Origin: Candidatus Thorarchaeota archaeon
GTDB lineage: Archaea > Asgardarchaeota > Thorarchaeia > Thorarchaeales > Thorarchaeaceae
Assembly (NCBI GenBank): GCA_016839445.1
Contig: JAEOUG010000168.1
Location: 1 to 11,618, forward strand
Length of the DNA: 11,618 bases
Reading direction: 5' to 3'
The notes below the pieces were generated by a model. The model was not told the DNA's origin. It worked only from the letters and a program-made list of their open reading frames with translations, and searched no databases. Below are positions 3,072-10,856 of the stretch, piece by piece. How positions within the stretch are numbered: position 1 is the first letter of the stretch; each line of letters opens with the position of its first letter. Both the position numbers and the translations under genes were made by a program.

Positions 3072-4001
3072 CTAGAAGTAGAGCTTTCCCTTGAGTACAG
3101 TGACTCCCGTTCCACTCACTTTGACCTGATCAATGGATTCCTTGCCGCCCCGAACTTCAACGAACACCTTGCCAGCCCTGCCTACGTAGTGACCTTGTTC
3201 AACTACGATGCTAGTGATCGGATAAGTGGGTTCCATAAGCCCGTACTGGATGATGTAGGAACCCAGGCTCCCGGCAGCAGAGCCGGACACGGGGTCTTCA
3301 GGAACACCAAGTGCCGGTGCGAAGTGCCTAACCTGTGCATCAGAAGTGGGGTCTCTAGTCTTTCTCGTGAACAGGCTGATGGAGGCATAGTCGCCACTCT
3401 CATGTAGTTCCTCAAGCTTGTCCCAGTCAGGCCGAATCCGATCAAGAGACCTCTGTGTGCTAAGGGGAATCATCAGGTGAGGGGTCCCAGTACTAACTGT
3501 CTGAAGGGGATTTGGTGACAGAATGTCTGCCAGAGAAAGCCCAAAGGCGTCGGTGTACTCCTTGGGGTCGTAGGTCTCGAGGAAACGAGGTTTCTTGTGA
3601 GTGATTTGAACCTCATGTATCTGAGTCATTTCATTCTTGACGATGTCAACATTGAGAATCCCAGTCTTCGCCTCCAAACTGAATGTGTTGACATCCGATC
3701 GAAGCTGTATTCTTCCCTCATCAACCAGAGCCAGGAAACCAGCGATGGTTGGATGACCTGAGAAGCCCAGCTCACCCTTCGGTGTCATGTACCTGAACCG
3801 ATAGTCAGCAGAAGATGAACCCGAAATGAAGACAGTCTCACGAACGTTCATCTCTTGGGCGATGTGTACCATTGTCTCATCGCTGACATTGTTTGCGTCA
3901 AGGACAACAGCAGCAGGGTTGCCGCCGAATGGAATGTCTGTGAACACATCGACCTGTATGACATCAAGCTGGCGTCTGAGACTCAAGAGCATCAACCGCA
4001 A
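3072..4001 (-). CDS. PhzF family (DAP-epimerase fold) isomerase; start may be TTG 3986
   Basis: Motifs VDVFT..PFGGNPAAVV, IAQEMNxxETVFI, RYMTPxxELxFxGHPT, VSTGTPH, RHFAPxxGVPEDPVSGSA and EQG..GR. Confidence 0.93.
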   Translation of the reverse strand: MRLMLLSLRRQLDVIQVDVFTDIPFGGNPAAVVLDANNVSDETMVHIAQEMNVRETVFISGSSSADYRFRYMTPKGELGFSGHPTIAGFLALVDEGRIQLRSDVNTFSLEAKTGILNVDIVKNEMTQIHEVQITHKKPRFLETYDPKEYTDAFGLSLADILSPNPLQTVSTGTPHLMIPLSTQRSLDRIRPDWDKLEELHESGDYASISLFTRKTRDPTSDAQVRHFAPALGVPEDPVSGSAAGSLGSYIIQYGLMEPTYPITSIVVEQGHYVGRAGKVFVEVRGGKESIDQVKVSGTGVTVLKGKLYF

Positions 4002-4081: not shown

Positions 4082-4939
4082 ATGAGAGGATTGGAGAAGC
4101 TCCGGGAGAAACTGCCGAAGTACAAGGGACGCAGGATTGCCCTCATTCCCATTCTGTTCATCGTTTCTGTGACAGTCGGTGTCTGTATCCAGATACTGTT
4201 TGATGTTGCATCAAGGATGCTCCCCACCATTCCCTTAATGTTTGACCTGGAACCGGTTCTTCCAATCCTTGGAAGTTGCGTCGTCTCTGCCATGGGGCTG
4301 ATACTGATCTCGGGGTTGTGGCGGAACAAGAAGGCGCTCAAGGAAAGACTAGGAAACCTAGCATATCAGAGGGTCATTCCAAGGGGAGTGGTCGGTGTCA
4401 CGTTTGTCTTCGCGCTCGCCATTCATAGCTACGTATCAGTTCGGTCGGTATCTCCAGTGGCGCCGGTCAATCCGCTCACAATCGAGCTTTCGCGCTCGGT
4501 GCTCTCAATGTTTGGCGTGACAACGGAGATTGACATAGTCGTCAGGGTGATGGTTGGGGTCTTCATCTTCTTGCTCGGGTTTGCTTCTGCAATGAGGGCG
4601 CTACTCGACTTCGGACTAGATTACATGTTGGTTCTCTATCTCTACTTCCCAGAAGAGTCAGAAGTACAGACACACAAGATCTACTCAGTGATTCGGCATC
4701 CCGCGTATTTTGCGCTGATACTTGTCGGACTCGGTGCGTTCTTTCTGCGGCTATCAGTGTATTCCTTGGCCTTCTTTCTAATCGTCTACGTCACACTGAG
4801 GATACACATCAGAGTGGAAGAGAAAGAGTTGGTCGAGCGGTTTGGAGAGGGCTATCTCGATTACATGAGCAAAGTGCCCGGACTCTATGTGCGACCGAGG
4901 GACATTGGTAGCTACCTTCGCTATCTCCGCGGTGGATAG
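4082..4939 (+). CDS. Isoprenylcysteine carboxyl methyltransferase / PEMT (Ste14)-family integral membrane methyltransferase
   Basis: Multiple TM helices and the C-terminal signature IYSVIRHPAY...EEKELVERFGEGYLDYMSKVP. Confidence 0.9.
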   Translation: MRGLEKLREKLPKYKGRRIALIPILFIVSVTVGVCIQILFDVASRMLPTIPLMFDLEPVLPILGSCVVSAMGLILISGLWRNKKALKERLGNLAYQRVIPRGVVGVTFVFALAIHSYVSVRSVSPVAPVNPLTIELSRSVLSMFGVTTEIDIVVRVMVGVFIFLLGFASAMRALLDFGLDYMLVLYLYFPEESEVQTHKIYSVIRHPAYFALILVGLGAFFLRLSVYSLAFFLIVYVTLRIHIRVEEKELVERFGEGYLDYMSKVPGLYVRPRDIGSYLRYLRGG

Positions 4940-4949
4940 GTCACTCTTC

Positions 4950-5216
4950 TCACTTAGAGGACATATGCTGAGAGAACTCATCCTTATGTGAAACATGATG
5001 AACCGCTGCACCGGGGGGGATTGCCTTGCCAGGACCGAATCTGACCTTTGCAGGCTCATAATCGCAATCAAGTAGTGTGGCGGCCCACATGTCGCGTCCA
5101 TGCTTCAGAGGCCTAACCAGCTTCTCGCCAGATCTTCCCTTTTCCACTCTGCCTGCGTATACGTAGAACATCACAGCAAGAGCGAGTCCACCGAGAAGGA
5201 GAAGGATTGCGAACAT
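4950..5216 (-). CDS. Small hypothetical protein with an N-terminal TM anchor
   Basis: Hydrophobic N-terminus MFAILLLLGGLALAVMFYVY. It fits the gap without overlap and has an upstream TATA (CTTATATC, minus strand 5249-5242) about 26 nt from the ATG. Confidence 0.7.
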   Translation of the reverse strand: MFAILLLLGGLALAVMFYVYAGRVEKGRSGEKLVRPLKHGRDMWAATLLDCDYEPAKVRFGPGKAIPPGAAVHHVSHKDEFSQHMSSK

Positions 5217-5240
5217 CTGGACTTTAACAATCGTGAAGAC

Positions 5241-5250
5241 CGATATAAGG
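5241..5250 (-). promoter_or_regulatory. TATA box for the 4950-5216 gene
   Basis: Minus strand reads CCTTATATCG, at leaderless spacing from ATG 5216. Confidence 0.55.
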
Positions 5251-5267
5251 ATTCACTTAGGTATCGT

Positions 5268-6173
5268 CTATTGAACGACGCCACTCTCACGAATCATCTC
5301 CTCTAGCCAGACTCTTCGTGGTCGGGGGAAGAGCCGTGAGGGATACATAAGGTACGTGTCTGCGTGCTTGACTCTGGGCGATGATTCTAACACTGTGTCA
5401 ATCTCTTCCATTTCGCGGACATGTTCAAGAACGAATACCGAGAAGAAGACGGGTTGACTTGCCGAGATGTAGGCATACCAGAACTGCTTGTCGAATGTCG
5501 TGTATAGCCAGTTGTTTGACTCAGCCACGTCGAAACTAGGAGCCCATGTGATCTCCGACAGGATTGCGGTCGAGTCACCTAAATTCGGATTCCATCGGCT
5601 CATGAAGTGTATGGTCTCATCATCATAGCACTTATTCAGAGCCCGTCTGGCGCGCCTGGCTGAGATACCGGCCTCTTCAGCAATCGCTGTGATTGGCTTT
5701 CTGACGTCATCCAAGAGAGCGGCCAGTACTCTCAGCTGGTCCTTTGTGAACTCACCCTTCTTGCCTCTCTGTGTGATTATCGTGTGAGCCTCAACCTCTG
5801 TGACTGTGTTTCTCGTCCTGATGAACTGGAGCAACTCAGCAAGTTCGGACGGCGTTCGGTAGTCAGCAAACACATGAAGGAGTCCGTCAGGAAACGGGTT
5901 CAGTACATAGGTCAAGGGATGCTGCCCAATCTCCTCAATGATCTCATCGCTTGTCACGTTGCTCTCCGTGACCACCTTGACAAGAACCGGATCTGCCCCC
6001 ACCTGTGCATAGCTGAGAACAACGTCGAACTCAATGACACCCCGTTCAATCAGATTGGCCACGCGAGCTCTCACCGCATTTGCTGTCATATCGAGCTGCT
6101 GAGCTAGGGCGTTGTAAGATATCCTGCAGTCGACAATCATCGCTCCGATGATTCTTGCATCGGTCCAGTCCAC
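5268..6173 (-). CDS. Lrp/AsnC-family transcriptional regulator with two tandem HTH + effector-domain units
   Basis: HTH1 is MDWTDARII...DCRISYNALAQQLDMTANAVRARVANLIERGVI. HTH2 is QLRVLAALLDDVRKPITAIAEEAGISARRARRAL. At 301 aa it is about twice a normal Lrp. Confidence 0.88.
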   Translation of the reverse strand: MDWTDARIIGAMIVDCRISYNALAQQLDMTANAVRARVANLIERGVIEFDVVLSYAQVGADPVLVKVVTESNVTSDEIIEEIGQHPLTYVLNPFPDGLLHVFADYRTPSELAELLQFIRTRNTVTEVEAHTIITQRGKKGEFTKDQLRVLAALLDDVRKPITAIAEEAGISARRARRALNKCYDDETIHFMSRWNPNLGDSTAILSEITWAPSFDVAESNNWLYTTFDKQFWYAYISASQPVFFSVFVLEHVREMEEIDTVLESSPRVKHADTYLMYPSRLFPRPRRVWLEEMIRESGVVQ

Positions 6174-6221
6174 CCACGCGCACGCTCACAAGTCCGGTTG
6201 CTTGGTTCGGCAGCTTTACCC

Positions 6222-6233
6222 TTGTATATATTG
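6222..6233. promoter_or_regulatory. Palindromic TATATA box, probable bidirectional promoter for the regulator and the beta-helix gene
   Basis: TTGTATATATTG is the main AT-rich element in the divergent gap 6174-6302. SD GGAGGGG at 6291-6297 precedes TTG 6303. Confidence 0.55.
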
Positions 6234-6302
6234 ACTTCGACTCTCACTGAACCGGAAAGGAGAAAGGCAGAACTAGTGTAGACAGCAGATGGAGGGGCGT
6301 CG

Positions 6303-8732
6303 TTGCCGCCGCTGTGGAAGAGGAAGATTGCTCTCACGATTCTTGCATTGCTTCTAGCCGCTCCAGTTGTACTCACGCTGGAGGGGCCGAGTGAGTTCAG
6401 CAGGAGCCCTTCAGAGAAAGATGCCCTTCGGATGCCACTCGAATCAGATCTGATTGAACATGCAGCAATCACCATCCACAACGATTCGGAGCTCGCTGGT
6501 CAAGGCTGGCCTGGCAACGGAAGTGTATCTAATCCATTTGTCATATCCAGCCTGAATATCACCACCAACGGCACCTGCTTGGCAATCATGAATACACGGG
6601 CACATGTTCTGGTCAATGAGTGCATATTCACGAGAGCAGCATCCGAAGACGGCACTAGCATCTTCCTGGGAAATGTCACCCATTGCTCAGTCACGCACTG
6701 CCAGATTGCAGGCGGCTCGTTTACCATCGACCACTCCTACTACTGCAGCATCACACGGTGCAACGTAAGTGGATGCGTAGAGGGAATCTACTTCTACACT
6801 GTATCATACAGCAATGCAACCGAGAACCGGGTCTATGACTGTGGTACTGGTATCAAGTGTCGCTTGGTCGCCGAGAACCTCATCATGCACAACCAGGTGT
6901 TTCGCTGTGGGAGCGGTATTCACAGCAACTACGAGAATGATGATTACCCAGCCTACTATCTGAATAACACGGTCAGCAACTGCACGAGAGGACTGTATAT
7001 TGAGAATGGAGGTGTATTCAGGAACAATGCGATTCATGACTGCCATACGGCTGTCAAGATCGGCTTTGGATATCTGAGCGTCGTAGAGAACAACTCCATC
7101 GACACATTCTCTCACTACGGCATCTATGCAGACTGGTCAGACAGGTCCACAATCGCCAACAACTCGATTATCGGGGGAAGTACTGCAGGCATTGTGCTAT
7201 CGCACTGTGAGGAGTGTGTTGTCATGAACAACCTCCTGACGGCGTGTGGCCTCTCGCTCGGGGAGTTCTACCTGAGCGACTCCCCACGCTATCGGACGAC
7301 CACAATAGAAGGGAACCTTGTGAACGGCAAGAGCCTCGTGTACATCAGCAACCTCACAGGCGGCTCGATAGTGATGGCGGACTACGGCCAGCTGATAGCT
7401 GTTAACTGCTCCAATCTAGTGCTTACCGGTGGCTTCTTCGAGAACGTCTGCGATGCCGTGTTGCTTGCATACTGTACCTCGATTCAGATTTCCTCCATAA
7501 TGGTAGTGGGGGGCTCACCCGGGGTATGCAACGGAGTATCACTCTTCGAGTCGACGGGGTGCACAATCGAGGATTCCGATTTCTTCCAAGCCGGCATCAA
7601 TATCGCAGGAAGGGTTTCTGAATCATGGAATCACTCTGTGTCAAACTGCTACTGCAATGGCAAGGAACTCAGACTCGTGCACGGCGAGTCAGGATTGGTT
7701 CTCGATGCTGATGACTTTGGCCAGCTGATACTGGCCAACTGCAATGATACTGAGGTCAGAGATGGAACTATCGCAGACGGGGTTACGGGAATAGTCCTCG
7801 GATTCTGTCAGGACTGCCGGGTTGTAAACGTAACAACGGTCGGTCACTCGGACAGTGGAATACGGGTCTCCTGCTCCGAGGACTGCATAGTTGAGCTATG
7901 CCACGTTTCAGACTGCAGATATGGACTCCACCCGTACTTGTCAGACCATTCCCACTTCAGAAACTGCACTGTAGAGAGAAACGAAGTAGGGGTATACTAC
8001 TGGGGAGGGATGGAGTCGAGGGTCTACTACAACCTGATTAGGCAGAATGAGCTCAATGCCAGATCCACTTCGATAAGCAGCTACTGGGATGACGGGTTGT
8101 GTCTCGGCAACTTCTGGGACGACTACGATGGAGTCGATTTCTACGAGATTTACCATGATTTCTCGAGCGGGACGGGGTATTACGACATTGTTGACAGATT
8201 CCCCAACGGAACGAGGCATGATTGGGATGCTCCGGTGATAACGGTCGTTCCCGAAGACCTCGAATACATCGACGATGGAGTCACGCATCACATCCTTCAG
8301 TGGGACGTGGAAGATGAGCACTCTGGTCGCTATCAGATCTTCTTGGATGGCGAGCTGATTAGATACGGCTGGTGGTGGCCGTACCCAGACACCTACGGAG
8401 GACCCATTGTGGCCATCTATCCGGGACTGGAGCCGGGTACACACAATGTCACGATACTTGTCGAGGACCTAGGTGCCTTCTTCGCATCGGCGACCACGTA
8501 CGTAACCGTTCTGCCCAGTACTACTACCAGCACAACCACAACCCAGACAACTACTACAAACACAGGCACGACCACGACCACTTCTGGTACCGGGACAACC
8601 TCTAACACCAACGGGACCCAAGGAAGCGCAATGCAGATTATCCTCTTGCTGACTAGTGTGGCTAGCGTTGTCGTGATTGTAGTATTCGGCGGGCTATCCA
8701 CCAGAAGGTTGAGGCGCAAGGGTTTCGCGTGA
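6303..8732 (+). CDS. Cell-surface right-handed parallel beta-helix (NosD-like/CASH) protein with Ig-like domain, Thr-rich stalk and C-terminal TM anchor
   Basis: Signal peptide, N-cap GWPGNGSVSNPFVI and many GIxl...N..I..N repeats. It also has a WDDG..GNFWDDY...DRFP cap, a Thr-rich linker (about 8520-8620) and a TM helix followed by RRLRRK. Confidence 0.88.
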   Translation: MPPLWKRKIALTILALLLAAPVVLTLEGPSEFSRSPSEKDALRMPLESDLIEHAAITIHNDSELAGQGWPGNGSVSNPFVISSLNITTNGTCLAIMNTRAHVLVNECIFTRAASEDGTSIFLGNVTHCSVTHCQIAGGSFTIDHSYYCSITRCNVSGCVEGIYFYTVSYSNATENRVYDCGTGIKCRLVAENLIMHNQVFRCGSGIHSNYENDDYPAYYLNNTVSNCTRGLYIENGGVFRNNAIHDCHTAVKIGFGYLSVVENNSIDTFSHYGIYADWSDRSTIANNSIIGGSTAGIVLSHCEECVVMNNLLTACGLSLGEFYLSDSPRYRTTTIEGNLVNGKSLVYISNLTGGSIVMADYGQLIAVNCSNLVLTGGFFENVCDAVLLAYCTSIQISSIMVVGGSPGVCNGVSLFESTGCTIEDSDFFQAGINIAGRVSESWNHSVSNCYCNGKELRLVHGESGLVLDADDFGQLILANCNDTEVRDGTIADGVTGIVLGFCQDCRVVNVTTVGHSDSGIRVSCSEDCIVELCHVSDCRYGLHPYLSDHSHFRNCTVERNEVGVYYWGGMESRVYYNLIRQNELNARSTSISSYWDDGLCLGNFWDDYDGVDFYEIYHDFSSGTGYYDIVDRFPNGTRHDWDAPVITVVPEDLEYIDDGVTHHILQWDVEDEHSGRYQIFLDGELIRYGWWWPYPDTYGGPIVAIYPGLEPGTHNVTILVEDLGAFFASATTYVTVLPSTTTSTTTTQTTTTNTGTTTTTSGTGTTSNTNGTQGSAMQIILLLTSVASVVVIVVFGGLSTRRLRRKGFA

Positions 8733-8739
8733 ACCACAA

Positions 8740-8754
8740 CACTAGGGCCTAGTG
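8740..8754. other. Perfect inverted repeat CACTAGG-G-CCTAGTG just after the beta-helix gene
   Basis: 7-bp arms with a 1-nt spacer, starting 8 nt after the stop. It could be a terminator, processing signal or operator. Confidence 0.35.
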
Positions 8755-8894
8755 AGTCTCCCTCTGTACACAACAGCCCAGACCCCAACGACGACACCCG
8801 CAATCCCATCGGTCCCACACTCGAGCTCGTCTTTGAAGAGCTTGTACTTCGCATGCTGGGGTTCGCGAAAAGCTAACTGCCCAGTAAACAACAT
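8742..8894 (-). pseudogene. 50-codon ORF resembling a remnant of a membrane-anchored surface-protein gene
   Basis: MLFTGQLAFREPQHAKYKLFKDELECGTDGIAGVVVGVWAVVYRGRLTRP*, with a short hydrophobic stretch and basic tail. Confidence 0.25.
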
Positions 8895-8939
8895 GGCTTT
8901 TATGCGCCAGAAGCCCAGAGGTGGTTTGAGAAACGTGAA

Positions 8940-9401
8940 ATGACTGAATCTGAGGAGCGATATTCTGATTACCTTAGCCTTGTATCTAACATAAATAGCA
9001 TGGCTGCAGTCTTCGCTGGTTTCATCATTACCATCCTCACCTTACTCCTCACCCAACTCCCTCCAACGTCTCTCAGCGACGCCATCATTCAGTTGATTCT
9101 CCTCTTCTTGGCTCTGTTGTTTCATTTTTGGGTCTTCTTGGTTGGAGTCAACTTGATTGGAGCTTTCCTCACCGTTCGCACGATCCCCTCTTCAGTAAAG
9201 ACTTCAGCGCGATCCATCCCCATCTTCATCATCGCCTATTGGGCCATGGGAATGGCCATCCCCCTTTTGTTCCTGATTTGGGCCTTGTTTCTCCTGGCAA
9301 TCTTGGCAACGGCCATTTGGACTCTCTTCTTCATTGTATCGATACTTGCCCAATATGAACCACTGAAAGAATACCGAAGTGCCCGTGAAGCTCAACAGTG
9401 A
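8940..9401 (+). CDS. Hypothetical four-TM membrane protein
   Basis: 153 aa with four hydrophobic segments and polar termini. Confidence 0.8.
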   Translation: MTESEERYSDYLSLVSNINSMAAVFAGFIITILTLLLTQLPPTSLSDAIIQLILLFLALLFHFWVFLVGVNLIGAFLTVRTIPSSVKTSARSIPIFIIAYWAMGMAIPLLFLIWALFLLAILATAIWTLFFIVSILAQYEPLKEYRSAREAQQ

Positions 9402-9459
9402 AAGACTGAGTACCATATTCTAGATGAATAGCTAGCTGCTGTCTAGCTCAGAGAGTAGA

Positions 9460-9607
9460 AGAAGGTGGCGAGCATGCGGGAATCGTGGTAGGAGGGGGGA
9501 GTTTCGTAATTGAGGGCATGTAACGAAAAACTAGCCCACACGCTCGCCTTTGCATCCCAATTCACTGAGGAACGATGCCCTATGCCTCGACCCTCCGGTG
9601 AATTATC
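9460..9607 (-). ncRNA. Candidate structured ncRNA (~145 nt): two hairpins with complementary loops
   Basis: A 14-bp stem (9548-9535 with 9480-9467) pairs fully only on the minus strand, using two G:U. There is an inner stem (9532-9521 with 9509-9500) and a 5' hairpin (9604-9559). The loops AGGGCA(U) and (A)UGCCCU are complementary. TATA CTTTAAAT lies about 25 nt upstream and a pyrimidine tail follows. Confidence 0.65.
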
Positions 9608-9626
9608 TGAAGGAAACCGAGGTAGG

Positions 9627-9640
9627 ATTTAAAGTTTACT
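9627..9640 (-). promoter_or_regulatory. BRE/TATA promoter for the candidate ncRNA
   Basis: Minus strand reads AGTAAA-CTTTAAAT. The predicted TSS near 9606-9607 coincides with the base of the first hairpin. Confidence 0.55.
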
Positions 9641-9813
9641 TTAATGACGCCGTTCCAATTCCTCTATTGATTATTGAAAGATTTACGGCCCCTCTCGTGC
9701 TCGTCTATTGGAGTTCTGGTCCAACACGCATGAGTGCCGCATGAGCAATCTGGAGACTTAAAGTCACCTAGCTTTAAGATGGCCCATCGACACAGATTTA
9801 TGGTACGCCTTCG

Positions 9814-9837
9814 CGACATGTTCTGTTGTACATATCG
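9814..9837. promoter_or_regulatory. ModE-like palindromic operator CGACATGT-N8-ACATATCG
   Basis: Arms match at 7/8 and the CG-to-CG span is 24 bp, as in ModE boxes. It sits between a TATA-like TTTATG (9797-9802) and ATG 9855 of a molybdopterin-oxidoreductase-like gene. Confidence 0.55.
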
Positions 9838-9854
9838 AGAAGCGTGAATCGACA

Positions 9855-10856
9855 ATGGAAGGAAGACAGATCGCCGCTCTAGCAATAACAGCAATACTAC
9901 TGGTCACCGGAGTTGCCGCCCTGGTAGTGTTTCTCCCTGACACAGGGAACGGAAATGCGACCACCACAACGGATCCAGACACCGATCCCAGTGCAAGCGT
10001 CATTGTGACAATAGGAGAGAGTTCGGAAATGTACAATTTCTCGGAGCTAAAGGAGCTTCCATCTGTTACTGGTGAAGGGGGACACAGAAAGACCACCGGA
10101 ACCATCGTCGGGCCTTTCACCTACACGGGTGTGCCAATGTATACGCTACTGAACTCAGTTGCAGACGTCCCAGCTGGCTACACGCTGGAAGTGATTTCCC
10201 GTGATGGGTACACTACCTACTTCACTCGAGCTCAAGTGGAAGGCAGATTCGATGGTTACTCACCGACTGGAGAGCCTATCGGGATAATCAACTGCACCCT
10301 CATTCTCGCCTACTACGAGGACTCAGAGCCACTGCCGGAGGGAGGGCCACTCAGGGTGGTCACACTGAATGATGATGGAAACCTGACAGATGGGCACTTC
10401 TGGGCAAAGGATGTCGTGAACATTACTCTCATCGATGAGGTGGAACCCTGGGAACTTGAACTGATGGGAGTGGAATCTCTGAACCTGACACACGACGAGT
10501 ACTACTCGGTAGCCTCGTGTCCTCATCATGCAAGAGACATCGCCGTTGGGGCAGACGTATACTCAGGAGTAGCTCTCTGGACTATCGTCGCGGCCATGGA
10601 CGGTGCAGATGATGACCACTTCCTGTTCAATGGATCCTTGGCCGTCGAGGGCTATGATCTTGTCGTCAGCGACGGTGAAGGCAACAACGTCACAATCAGC
10701 TCGATCACCTTGGCCTACAACTACTCAATCATAGTTGCGGGTTGGCTCAATGGCAGCTTGCTTCAAGCCCCTGAGTGGCCCCTCGCCCTTGTGACGTCTG
10801 CTGGTGTCTTGATAGGCAATATCGTCAGCATGGAAATGGTGTTCTCTGAGGAGTAG
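9855..10856 (+). CDS. Membrane-anchored extracellular protein with two molybdopterin-dependent oxidoreductase (sulfite oxidase/MsrP-like) domains
   Basis: N-terminal TM and T/D linker. Domain 1 has YTGVPMYTLL, SRDGYTTYF, ILAYYEDSEPL..GGPLRVV and WAKDVVNI. Domain 2 has YSGVALWTIV and IIVAGWLNG..L..PEWPLALV. Confidence 0.8.
   Translation: MEGRQIAALAITAILLVTGVAALVVFLPDTGNGNATTTTDPDTDPSASVIVTIGESSEMYNFSELKELPSVTGEGGHRKTTGTIVGPFTYTGVPMYTLLNSVADVPAGYTLEVISRDGYTTYFTRAQVEGRFDGYSPTGEPIGIINCTLILAYYEDSEPLPEGGPLRVVTLNDDGNLTDGHFWAKDVVNITLIDEVEPWELELMGVESLNLTHDEYYSVASCPHHARDIAVGADVYSGVALWTIVAAMDGADDDHFLFNGSLAVEGYDLVVSDGEGNNVTISSITLAYNYSIIVAGWLNGSLLQAPEWPLALVTSAGVLIGNIVSMEMVFSEE

Follow-up and report, generated by a model that had tools for sequence, protein, structure and literature searches.

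The minus strand of an 11,618-nt stretch of Candidatus Thorarchaeota DNA (contig JAEOUG010000168.1 of assembly GCA_016839445.1, hereafter the window) carries at 9605-9450 what is almost certainly a real non-coding RNA gene of an undescribed family. The functional core of the family is the second of two hairpins, in which a freely changing paired stem presents an almost frozen loop of approximately 50 nt, and the conserved unit is this hairpin 2 alone (9548-9467). Among the genomes searched, the family is confined to the order that holds the Thorarchaeota. The gene, its strand, the stem, the distribution, the paralogy and the promoter boxes are established by the comparisons described below. 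The features located or predicted in the window are the following:

9637-9627, minus strand: TATA-like promoter box AAACTTTAAAT, about 22 nt upstream of hairpin 1
9604-9559, minus strand: hairpin 1, a lineage-specific 5' leader hairpin predicted by RNAfold, with GGAGG/CCUC in its stem
9581-9575, minus strand: AGGGCAU, within the loop of hairpin 1
9558-9549, minus strand: purine-rich linker GGGAUGCAAA; A-rich linkers occupy the same position in relatives
9548-9535, minus strand: 5' strand of the closing stem of hairpin 2, GGCGAGCGUGUGGG, which pairs with 9480-9467
9534-9481, minus strand: near-invariant 54-nt loop of hairpin 2, its columns in alignment A1 (see below) invariant or at least 90% conserved
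9530-9526, minus strand: U-tract in the loop of hairpin 2
9528-9523 with 9507-9502, minus strand: inner stem UUUCGU/ACGAAA
9521-9511, minus strand: module 1, ACAUGCCCUCA, in the loop of hairpin 2
9503-9487, minus strand: module 2, AACUCCCCCCUCCUACC, in the loop of hairpin 2
9480-9467, minus strand: 3' strand of the closing stem, CCCGCAUGCUCGCC, giving 14 bp that include two G:U pairs
9466-9450, minus strand: 3' tail, ACC and then a pyrimidine/U-rich run, the predicted and probable transcript end

The initial annotation, which had been made from the window alone, described both hairpins, the two G:U pairs, the TATA-like box and a 7-nt complementarity between the loops, and all of them were recovered. 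The AGGGCAU in the loop of hairpin 1 is complementary to AUGCCCU at 9519-9513 in hairpin 2, the apical sequence of the inner stem of hairpin 2 is CAUGCCCUCAA, and a pyrimidine tail lies 3' of this hairpin, ACC(U/C) standing directly 3' of the closing stem in nearly all copies of the family. Folding of the minus strand with RNAfold predicted both hairpins at -57.4 kcal/mol (z = -2.2, a level reached by 4 of 200 shuffles), while the plus strand was no better than its shuffles (z = +0.6). It is the conservation and covariation in relatives, and not the fold energy alone, that place the element beyond chance.

The distribution of the element was determined by BLAST, with positions 9640-9440 as the query, in 61 genomes comprising 60 relatives and the genome of the window itself, and matches were obtained in 38 of them. 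Hairpin 2 was present in all 36 genomes of the same family and in the one genome of a sister family in the same order, and in none of the 23 genomes from 16 other families of the phylum. The matches started at query positions 85-93, which limits the conserved part to hairpin 2 and its tail (approximately 9553-9450), with 88-98% identity over hairpin 2 in the best match of most genomes. Hairpin 1 is not conserved by sequence, since matches begin only at those positions, and it could not be aligned in the relatives any more than the flanks could. R1, a covariance model derived from 96 copies, was run over 151 genomes of the phylum; it matched 26 of 26 genomes of the same family, the single genome of the sister family and the window's own genome, and gave a single weak match (27.5 bits, E = 0.002) in the other 123; the number of copies per genome ranged from one to nine. 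A pattern scan over one genome per prokaryotic species matched at least 120 stretches, and among the 80 matches listed the record titles read Thorarchaeota, Promethearchaeota or unnamed archaeon, with the exception of one Hermodarchaeota and one bacterium. The bacterial record gave no R1 match at E <= 1 and was discarded as a chance match. The Asgard host that the initial annotation had guessed agrees with these titles, the carriers among the matches listed being mostly Thorarchaeota or Promethearchaeota.

The closing stem covaries in the relatives, as would be expected of an RNA helix. RNAalifold predicted 11 stem pairs on alignment A1, which holds 96 distinct copies of the subfamily to which the window copy belongs (subfamily A), and compensatory double changes were found in all 11. 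When the same 96 sequences were examined against a second structure, of 22 pairs, both sides had changed in 12 of the 14 pairs of the closing stem. Paired cells amounted to 91.7% against 85.2% in shuffled alignments, and none of 500 shuffles reached the observed value, a figure that overstates the significance because the sequences are kin; two other measures are independent of kinship, namely the fall to 39-54% when the partners were slid by one to three columns and the count of pair types. Over the 11 RNAalifold pairs, G:U or U:G occupied 157 cells and A.C only 10, from which it follows that the transcript is the minus strand of the window. The minus-strand RNA gene that had been claimed is therefore borne out both by the covarying stems and by this asymmetry. 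The inner stem UUUCGU/ACGAAA hardly varies, yields no informative covariation and is absent from the other two subfamilies.

The pattern returned 209 instances from 212 loci, 166 of them distinct, which by type of loop comprise subfamily A with 103 copies (including that of the window), subfamily B with 39 copies, whose stems start with GUGGUC, and subfamily C with 24 copies, which have a short loop with CUCAUAACUCC. Common to all three are the U-tract, ACAUGCCCUCA, AACUCCCCCC(C)UCCUACC, the long closing stem and the ACC(U/C) that follows it, and the same loop modules are present in the sister family. The stems of B and C are dissimilar to that of A, yet they covary, with double changes in 8 of the 17 predicted pairs of subfamily B (28 sequences; 4 of 32 were left out of the alignment because the extracted ranges were too long) and in 9 of the 19 predicted pairs of subfamily C (21 sequences; 2 of 23 were left out). 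The subfamilies thus differ in stem, in the spacing between promoter and stem and in gene neighbourhood, and have the loop in common. In the genome of the window each subfamily is represented by one copy, namely the window copy, a subfamily B copy at 24483-24548 of contig C53 and a copy at the end of contig C38. Additional hairpins, 14-61 nt long, are inserted between the modules or inside the C-run in part of the family (L062, on contig C1 of genome G034, and L236, L237 and L238/L239), which implies that the loop is modular.

The genomic context was analysed by clustering 1150 ORFs of at least 90 codons found within 2.5 kb of the copies at 130 loci. Upstream of subfamily A a radical-SAM protein recurs (46 ORFs in 45 loci), downstream a PhzF-family protein is encoded on the same strand at a median of 160 nt (36 loci), and a TldD/PmbA protein is a further neighbour. 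Subfamily B is accompanied by a PAS histidine kinase and a 514-aa protein, and subfamily C by an OsmC-like and a VWA protein in convergent or divergent orientation. Neighbour clusters almost never cross subfamilies, one cluster of 11 loci, mostly B, including a single A locus. In the window, two of these neighbours are preserved in synteny, namely the PhzF gene (3072-4001) and, from 11229, a homologue of the divergent gene upstream; homologues of the two lie near RNA copies in 52 and 72 loci, respectively. Five genes of the window (4082-9401 and 9855-10856) are interposed between the RNA and its syntenic neighbours; they encode a PEMT-like methyltransferase, an AsnC/TrmB-type regulator, a NosD/beta-helix protein and unknowns of 153 and 333 aa, and were found near no other RNA copy in the loci retrieved.

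Signs of mobility were sought around the element and its relatives. No direct repeats of at least 14 nt link the RNA to its flanks and no shift in GC content was found, on which grounds an integration site or mobile island around it was rejected; phage records and IMG/VR viral contigs gave no match to the family, and no transposase occurred among the recurrent neighbour clusters scanned against Pfam, which hold housekeeping-type genes. A MITE or a transposon-borne RNA such as the omega/reRNA of IS200/IS605 elements was likewise rejected, given stems that diverge with compensation, no flanking repeats and no transposase in those clusters. The possibility of dispersed mobile copies, raised in the initial annotation, thus met with stable subfamily-specific neighbourhoods, no flanking repeats and no viral copies. 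The three subfamilies are anciently diverged paralogs at fixed places and not mobile copies.

The element had also been described as stand-alone and as unlikely to be a riboswitch leader. The first description holds for the window and for subfamily C, but not for most relatives, whose orthologue has phzF on the same strand about 160 nt downstream. The second one is upheld, as the next gene in the window (8940-9401) lies on the plus strand and converges on the RNA, only subfamily A orthologues precede phzF, and there is no consistent downstream gene across the subfamilies.

Promoter boxes predicted from the sequence occur at fixed distances from the conserved stem. Nearly all B copies (27 of 30) and C copies (22 of 24) have a box of the CTTA(A/T)TAGG type at -34 to -26 relative to the first base of the stem, so the RNAs of these subfamilies should start at the stem base. 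Among the 97 subfamily A copies the box lies further upstream in 59, either at -85 to -61 (38 copies with a long leader) or at -60 to -45 (21 copies with a short leader); it lies at -34 to -26 in a single copy, and 37 copies have no box that the regular expression recognises. The window is of the long-leader type, though its AAACTTTAAAT was missed by this expression; it aligns with the AAACTTTAATA(A/G)GT box that precedes the conserved stem by approximately 65-72 nt in long-leader relatives. The promoter that had been proposed for the window copy thus has counterparts in its relatives. Among the copies with no box are about 18 of the 97 in subfamily A (the L093 type) that immediately follow the stop codon of a gene upstream and show no recognisable TATA-like box, and such copies may derive from the 3' end of an mRNA.

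Hairpin 1 occurs only in long-leader copies, and its sequence differs between groups of species, even though the long-leader hairpins keep a G-rich loop (GGGCA, GGGUA or GGGCU, and GGGAG/GGGAC in another group). Leaders carry GGUAGG(A), GGAGGG or GUAGGAG, which are complementary to CCUCCUACC, and 3' of these motifs there is often a GGGCAU or GGUAUG complementary to (C)AUGCC(C). Of 44 long-leader copies, 20 can match ACAUGCCCUCAA with at least 5 complementary nt that stay single-stranded when the leader is folded by itself. The leader-loop duplex had a mean energy of -17.1 kcal/mol, compared with -9.2 for a control region 60 nt further upstream, and relative to shuffled leaders the mean z was -1.39, with z < -2 in 37 and z > 0 in 18 of the 97 copies. 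By clusters of leaders, a perfect complement of at least 6 nt to module 2 was found in 9 of 24 (3.4 expected), one of at least 5 nt to module 1 in 10 of 24 (7.3 expected), and complements to both modules in antiparallel order in 4 of 24 (0.7 expected). From these sequence comparisons, pairing between leader and loop appears plausible as an enriched, and not universal, property of subfamily A; covariation cannot prove it, because the loop never changes. The kissing-loop architecture of the initial annotation is therefore supported in part, by the 7-nt complementarity of the window copy, and does not describe the family as a whole, given that hairpin 1 is variable and limited to part of subfamily A, that fewer than half of the long-leader copies have an unpaired complement to AUGCCC, and that B and C are without hairpin 1. 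The putative kissing loop of the window is one instance of a leader-loop tendency and does not define the family.

The family matched no catalogued RNA family and is undescribed. None of the 4227 covariance models of Rfam 15 matched the window at the gathering score; at E <= 10 over 9350-9900 the minus strand gave no match and the plus strand two weak ones outside the element, and at E <= 1 over ten paralog loci the only result was a chance-level snoRNA match (20 bits against a cut-off of 100). The novelty that had been made dependent on Rfam thus holds, and so do the negative judgements on tRNA, C/D RNA and H/ACA RNA. ARAGORN found no tRNA or tmRNA gene in the window, no RUGAUGA or CUGA end boxes were found in 9450-9605, where Rfam gave no minus-strand C/D match either, and the subfamily A stem is followed by ACC and not ACA, with no Rfam H/ACA match. 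The loop around the inner stem is highly asymmetric (4 nt versus 20 nt), and no GA.AG motif was seen by eye. A hairpin upstream of the subfamily B paralog on contig C53 (L002 1416-1468) combines a CUGA on the 5' side with a UGAUG on the 3' side; its reading as a K-turn was dropped, since by eye it fails the K-turn rule. A scan for sigma-70 promoters and intrinsic terminators relied on bacterial models that are inapplicable to archaea, and its one match (9445-9417) lies downstream of the RNA. A literature search, outside which lay subscription journals and supplementary files, returned no description of such an RNA.

In Y RNAs, which occur as several paralogs, the 5' and 3' parts form a long duplex beneath a large, pyrimidine-rich loop. 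The Thorarchaeota RNA is outwardly like them in the long stem, the big pyrimidine-rich loop and the paralogs; it has a conserved loop on a variable stem, whereas Y RNAs show the opposite pattern. The Ro60/TROVE domain (PF05731) was found in none of 41 Thorarchaeota genomes, while control matches were obtained in Deinococcus and Bacteroides, and identity with Y RNA was discarded on this basis.

The coding potential and the expression of the element were also considered. The window copy contains an ORF of 35 codons. An ORF starting at the AUG of the loop has 3 codons in all 21 C copies and many different lengths in A and B, and since the C-run varies between 4 and 8 residues the reading frame shifts, so that a coding reading is unsupported. 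An index of contigs from RNA libraries gave 20 rows from 18 studies that contained 10-23% of the words of 9380-9700. The initial annotation had expected a discrete minus-strand transcript in metatranscriptomes. Four of these runs, from four studies, were examined, and each yielded one short contig (157, 158, 185 and 199 nt, at a depth of 2.8-7.7) covering hairpin 2 from 9460-9486 to 9550-9556 with 0-3 differences; strand, ends and transcription itself are not visible in such contigs. The contig flanks were unlike the window in all four runs, which indicates that the contigs come from relatives or paralogs, and for this reason the uncovered stretches (9380-9459 and 9557-9700) are uninformative. 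As DNA may also have been present in the libraries, the contigs are a weak hint that the RNA is abundant.

The sequence CCUCCUA is common to the loop and to the 16S rRNA 3' end of relatives, and the genome of the window uses Shine-Dalgarno sequences, GGAGG being enriched 3.7-fold at -18 to -5 of 1633 crude start codons. Searches for a partner RNA gave no signal above chance. Duplex energies of the loop with the 16S and 23S rRNA of relatives were no better than those of shuffled loops (24-30 of 30 shuffles equal), and shared 8-mers with these rRNAs were at chance level, the 23S slice of one genome (G001), possibly cut in the wrong orientation, giving zero. Complementary 7-9-mers in the 19 tRNAs parsed from the incomplete genome were at the level of shuffles, and genome-wide complements of at least 10 nt amounted to 336 scattered sites that were patternless and chance-like. 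Three AAAAGGAGGGGGGAG sites in the same genome (G000; contigs C54 at about 4357, C79 at about 1333 and C141 at about 9008) have 12-13 nt complementary to the C-run/CCUCC, a number of sites equal to the chance expectation. The rRNA genes themselves showed irregularities in the L215/L216 pair (G035:C2, G031:C23), as the 16S gene of one Thorarchaeota relative has 2411 nt for 1478 model positions and that of another has about 30 extra bases just before its anti-Shine-Dalgarno end; these extras are insertions or introns.

The closest functional parallels are found in bacteria. The cia-dependent small RNAs (csRNAs) of Streptococcus are highly similar paralogs with their own promoters, whose most conserved part is unpaired, is complementary to the Shine-Dalgarno sequence and AUG, and is thought to block translation initiation (PMC3091779). 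The Thorarchaeota RNA resembles them in that a genome holds several similar paralogs under separate promoters, and in the order of its loop, where CAU lies 5' of CCUCCU, as needed to pair with a Shine-Dalgarno sequence followed by AUG. It differs from them in that the csRNA hosts are bacteria and there is no similarity by sequence or covariance model, that the unpaired csRNA region lies between two stem-loops while the Thorarchaeota loop of approximately 50 nt is closed by one long stem, and that its invariant stretch is far longer. In subfamily A, moreover, the distance from CAU to CCUCC is too long for an ordinary initiation region, unlike the csRNA logic. CCUCCU and CAU are present and predicted to be unpaired, and the RNA may belong to the anti-TIR sRNAs, a functional and not a homologous class. 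RsaE/RoxS of Firmicutes have C-rich UCCC loops presented by stems and thought to pair with G-rich ribosome-binding sites. The likeness lies in a C-rich unpaired loop on stems and the difference in short repeated UCCC motifs in bacteria versus one long frozen loop in archaea, with no Rfam match.

The reading that we tentatively prefer, though we would put it at somewhat less than an even chance, is that of an independently promoted RNA of approximately 150 nt that would act in trans by base pairing and occlude G-rich, Shine-Dalgarno-like sites. The long covarying stem would hold open the frozen loop with its U-tract, ACAUGCCCUCA and AACUCCCCCCUCCUACC, the exposed C-run and CCUCCU would mimic the mRNA-docking end of 16S rRNA, and this anti-Shine-Dalgarno-like loop would pair with G-rich, Shine-Dalgarno-like mRNA sequences. 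The paralogs, under their own promoters, would deliver the same 'seed' under different conditions, and in subfamily A the G-rich leader (hairpin 1) may pair with the loop and either mask or pre-organise it. Of the trans-acting ncRNA proposed in the initial annotation, the undescribed, Rfam-negative family stands; trans action, mRNA pairing and the role of the leader are what we infer, and base pairing is favoured by CCUCCUA, the use of Shine-Dalgarno sequences, the CAU-CCUCCU order, the G-rich complements in leaders and the csRNA logic. Against it speak the searches of rRNA, tRNA and genome-wide complements, which gave no target, and the frozen stretch of approximately 45 nt, which far exceeds the usual seed of an sRNA and would fit a protein or a large RNA partner at least equally well. 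Further points against it are the leaders with z > 0 (18 of 97), the mere 4 of 24 clusters with both modules in order, and the orthologues in relatives that precede a same-strand phzF by about 160 nt and may be co-transcribed with it. The same long invariance, which extends across paralogs and genera, together with the conserved U-tract and the lack of a target, keeps close behind base pairing another reading that we nevertheless hold to be rather unlikely in itself, in which the frozen loop is a binding platform of an RNP scaffold or protein sponge, the stem presents it, and the paralogs titrate or carry a protein. That protein might be Sm-like and sit on the U-tract, it might be of the poly(C)/KH type, or it might be a factor whose normal target is the CCUCCU end of 16S rRNA. 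Such a platform would be in keeping with a U-tract that is conserved in B and C though its pairing partner ACGAAA is missing, and with extra hairpins that are tolerated between modules and not within them; it is harder to reconcile with neighbours that differ by subfamily and include no linked partner gene, with the absence of Ro60/TROVE from the 41 genomes searched, and with the G-rich loop complements kept in many leaders, which point to pairing between RNAs. A more specific form of this reading, which we regard as a long shot, makes the element the RNA subunit of an undescribed Thorarchaeota RNP in place of an ordinary regulatory sRNA, with an Sm-like protein on the U-tract and a loop that pairs with or mimics a universal RNA site, for example the 16S rRNA end at which mRNAs dock, combined with the initiator anticodon (CUCAUAAC in B and C).

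An improbable alternative is a compact pseudoknotted core that binds a ligand or is catalytic, in which the 'loop' would be a conserved tertiary core, held in place by the leader or by the upper end of the stem. Aptamers and small ribozymes show a similar pattern, with a closing stem that covaries, unpaired nucleotides that do not change and fixed sites where inserted hairpins are tolerated, and leader and loop have a bipartite complementarity, but no Rfam ribozyme or riboswitch matched even at E up to 10, B and C are without the leader and no downstream gene is consistent, and an invariant loop gives no covariation for tertiary pairs. The PhzF-family gene of one neighbour cluster, which follows on the same strand in all of its 36 loci at a median of 160 nt, would suggest a cis-acting 5' leader of a phzF-type operon; this appears more doubtful still, because the phzF of the window (3072-4001) is 5.4 kb away behind a convergent gene, the neighbours of subfamily C are convergent or divergent, and the same loop stands before unrelated genes or none. 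Hardly any weight falls on a DNA-level repeat (a MITE, an attachment site or a protein-binding site) or a small protein gene, which several copies per genome, some of them at contig ends, and the 35-codon ORF of the window copy might have suggested. A repeat is contradicted by stems that differ and yet stay paired, with G:U on one strand only, by stable synteny, and by flanks free of direct repeats and composition shift in a family with no viral-contig or phage matches, and a peptide gene by the 3-codon ORF of all 21 C copies and the variable length of the C-run.

No known prokaryotes are more closely related to eukaryotes than the Asgard archaea, and to our knowledge almost nothing has been learned about their non-coding RNAs. 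The family described here is order-wide and has several paralogs, and its loop is more tightly conserved than the surrounding protein genes, a strength of selection which implies a central partner. With the covariance model, the three subfamilies, the promoter boxes and the syntenic anchors, annotation of the RNA is now feasible for all Thorarchaeota genomes. Should Shine-Dalgarno sequences be what the loop acts on, as under the base-pairing reading, the family would be an archaeal counterpart of the bacterial anti-Shine-Dalgarno sRNA families. If instead it is part of an RNP, it would represent a new cellular particle, and in the form with an Sm-like protein and a universal RNA site this particle would exert general control over translation initiation or RNA processing in close prokaryotic relatives of eukaryotes.
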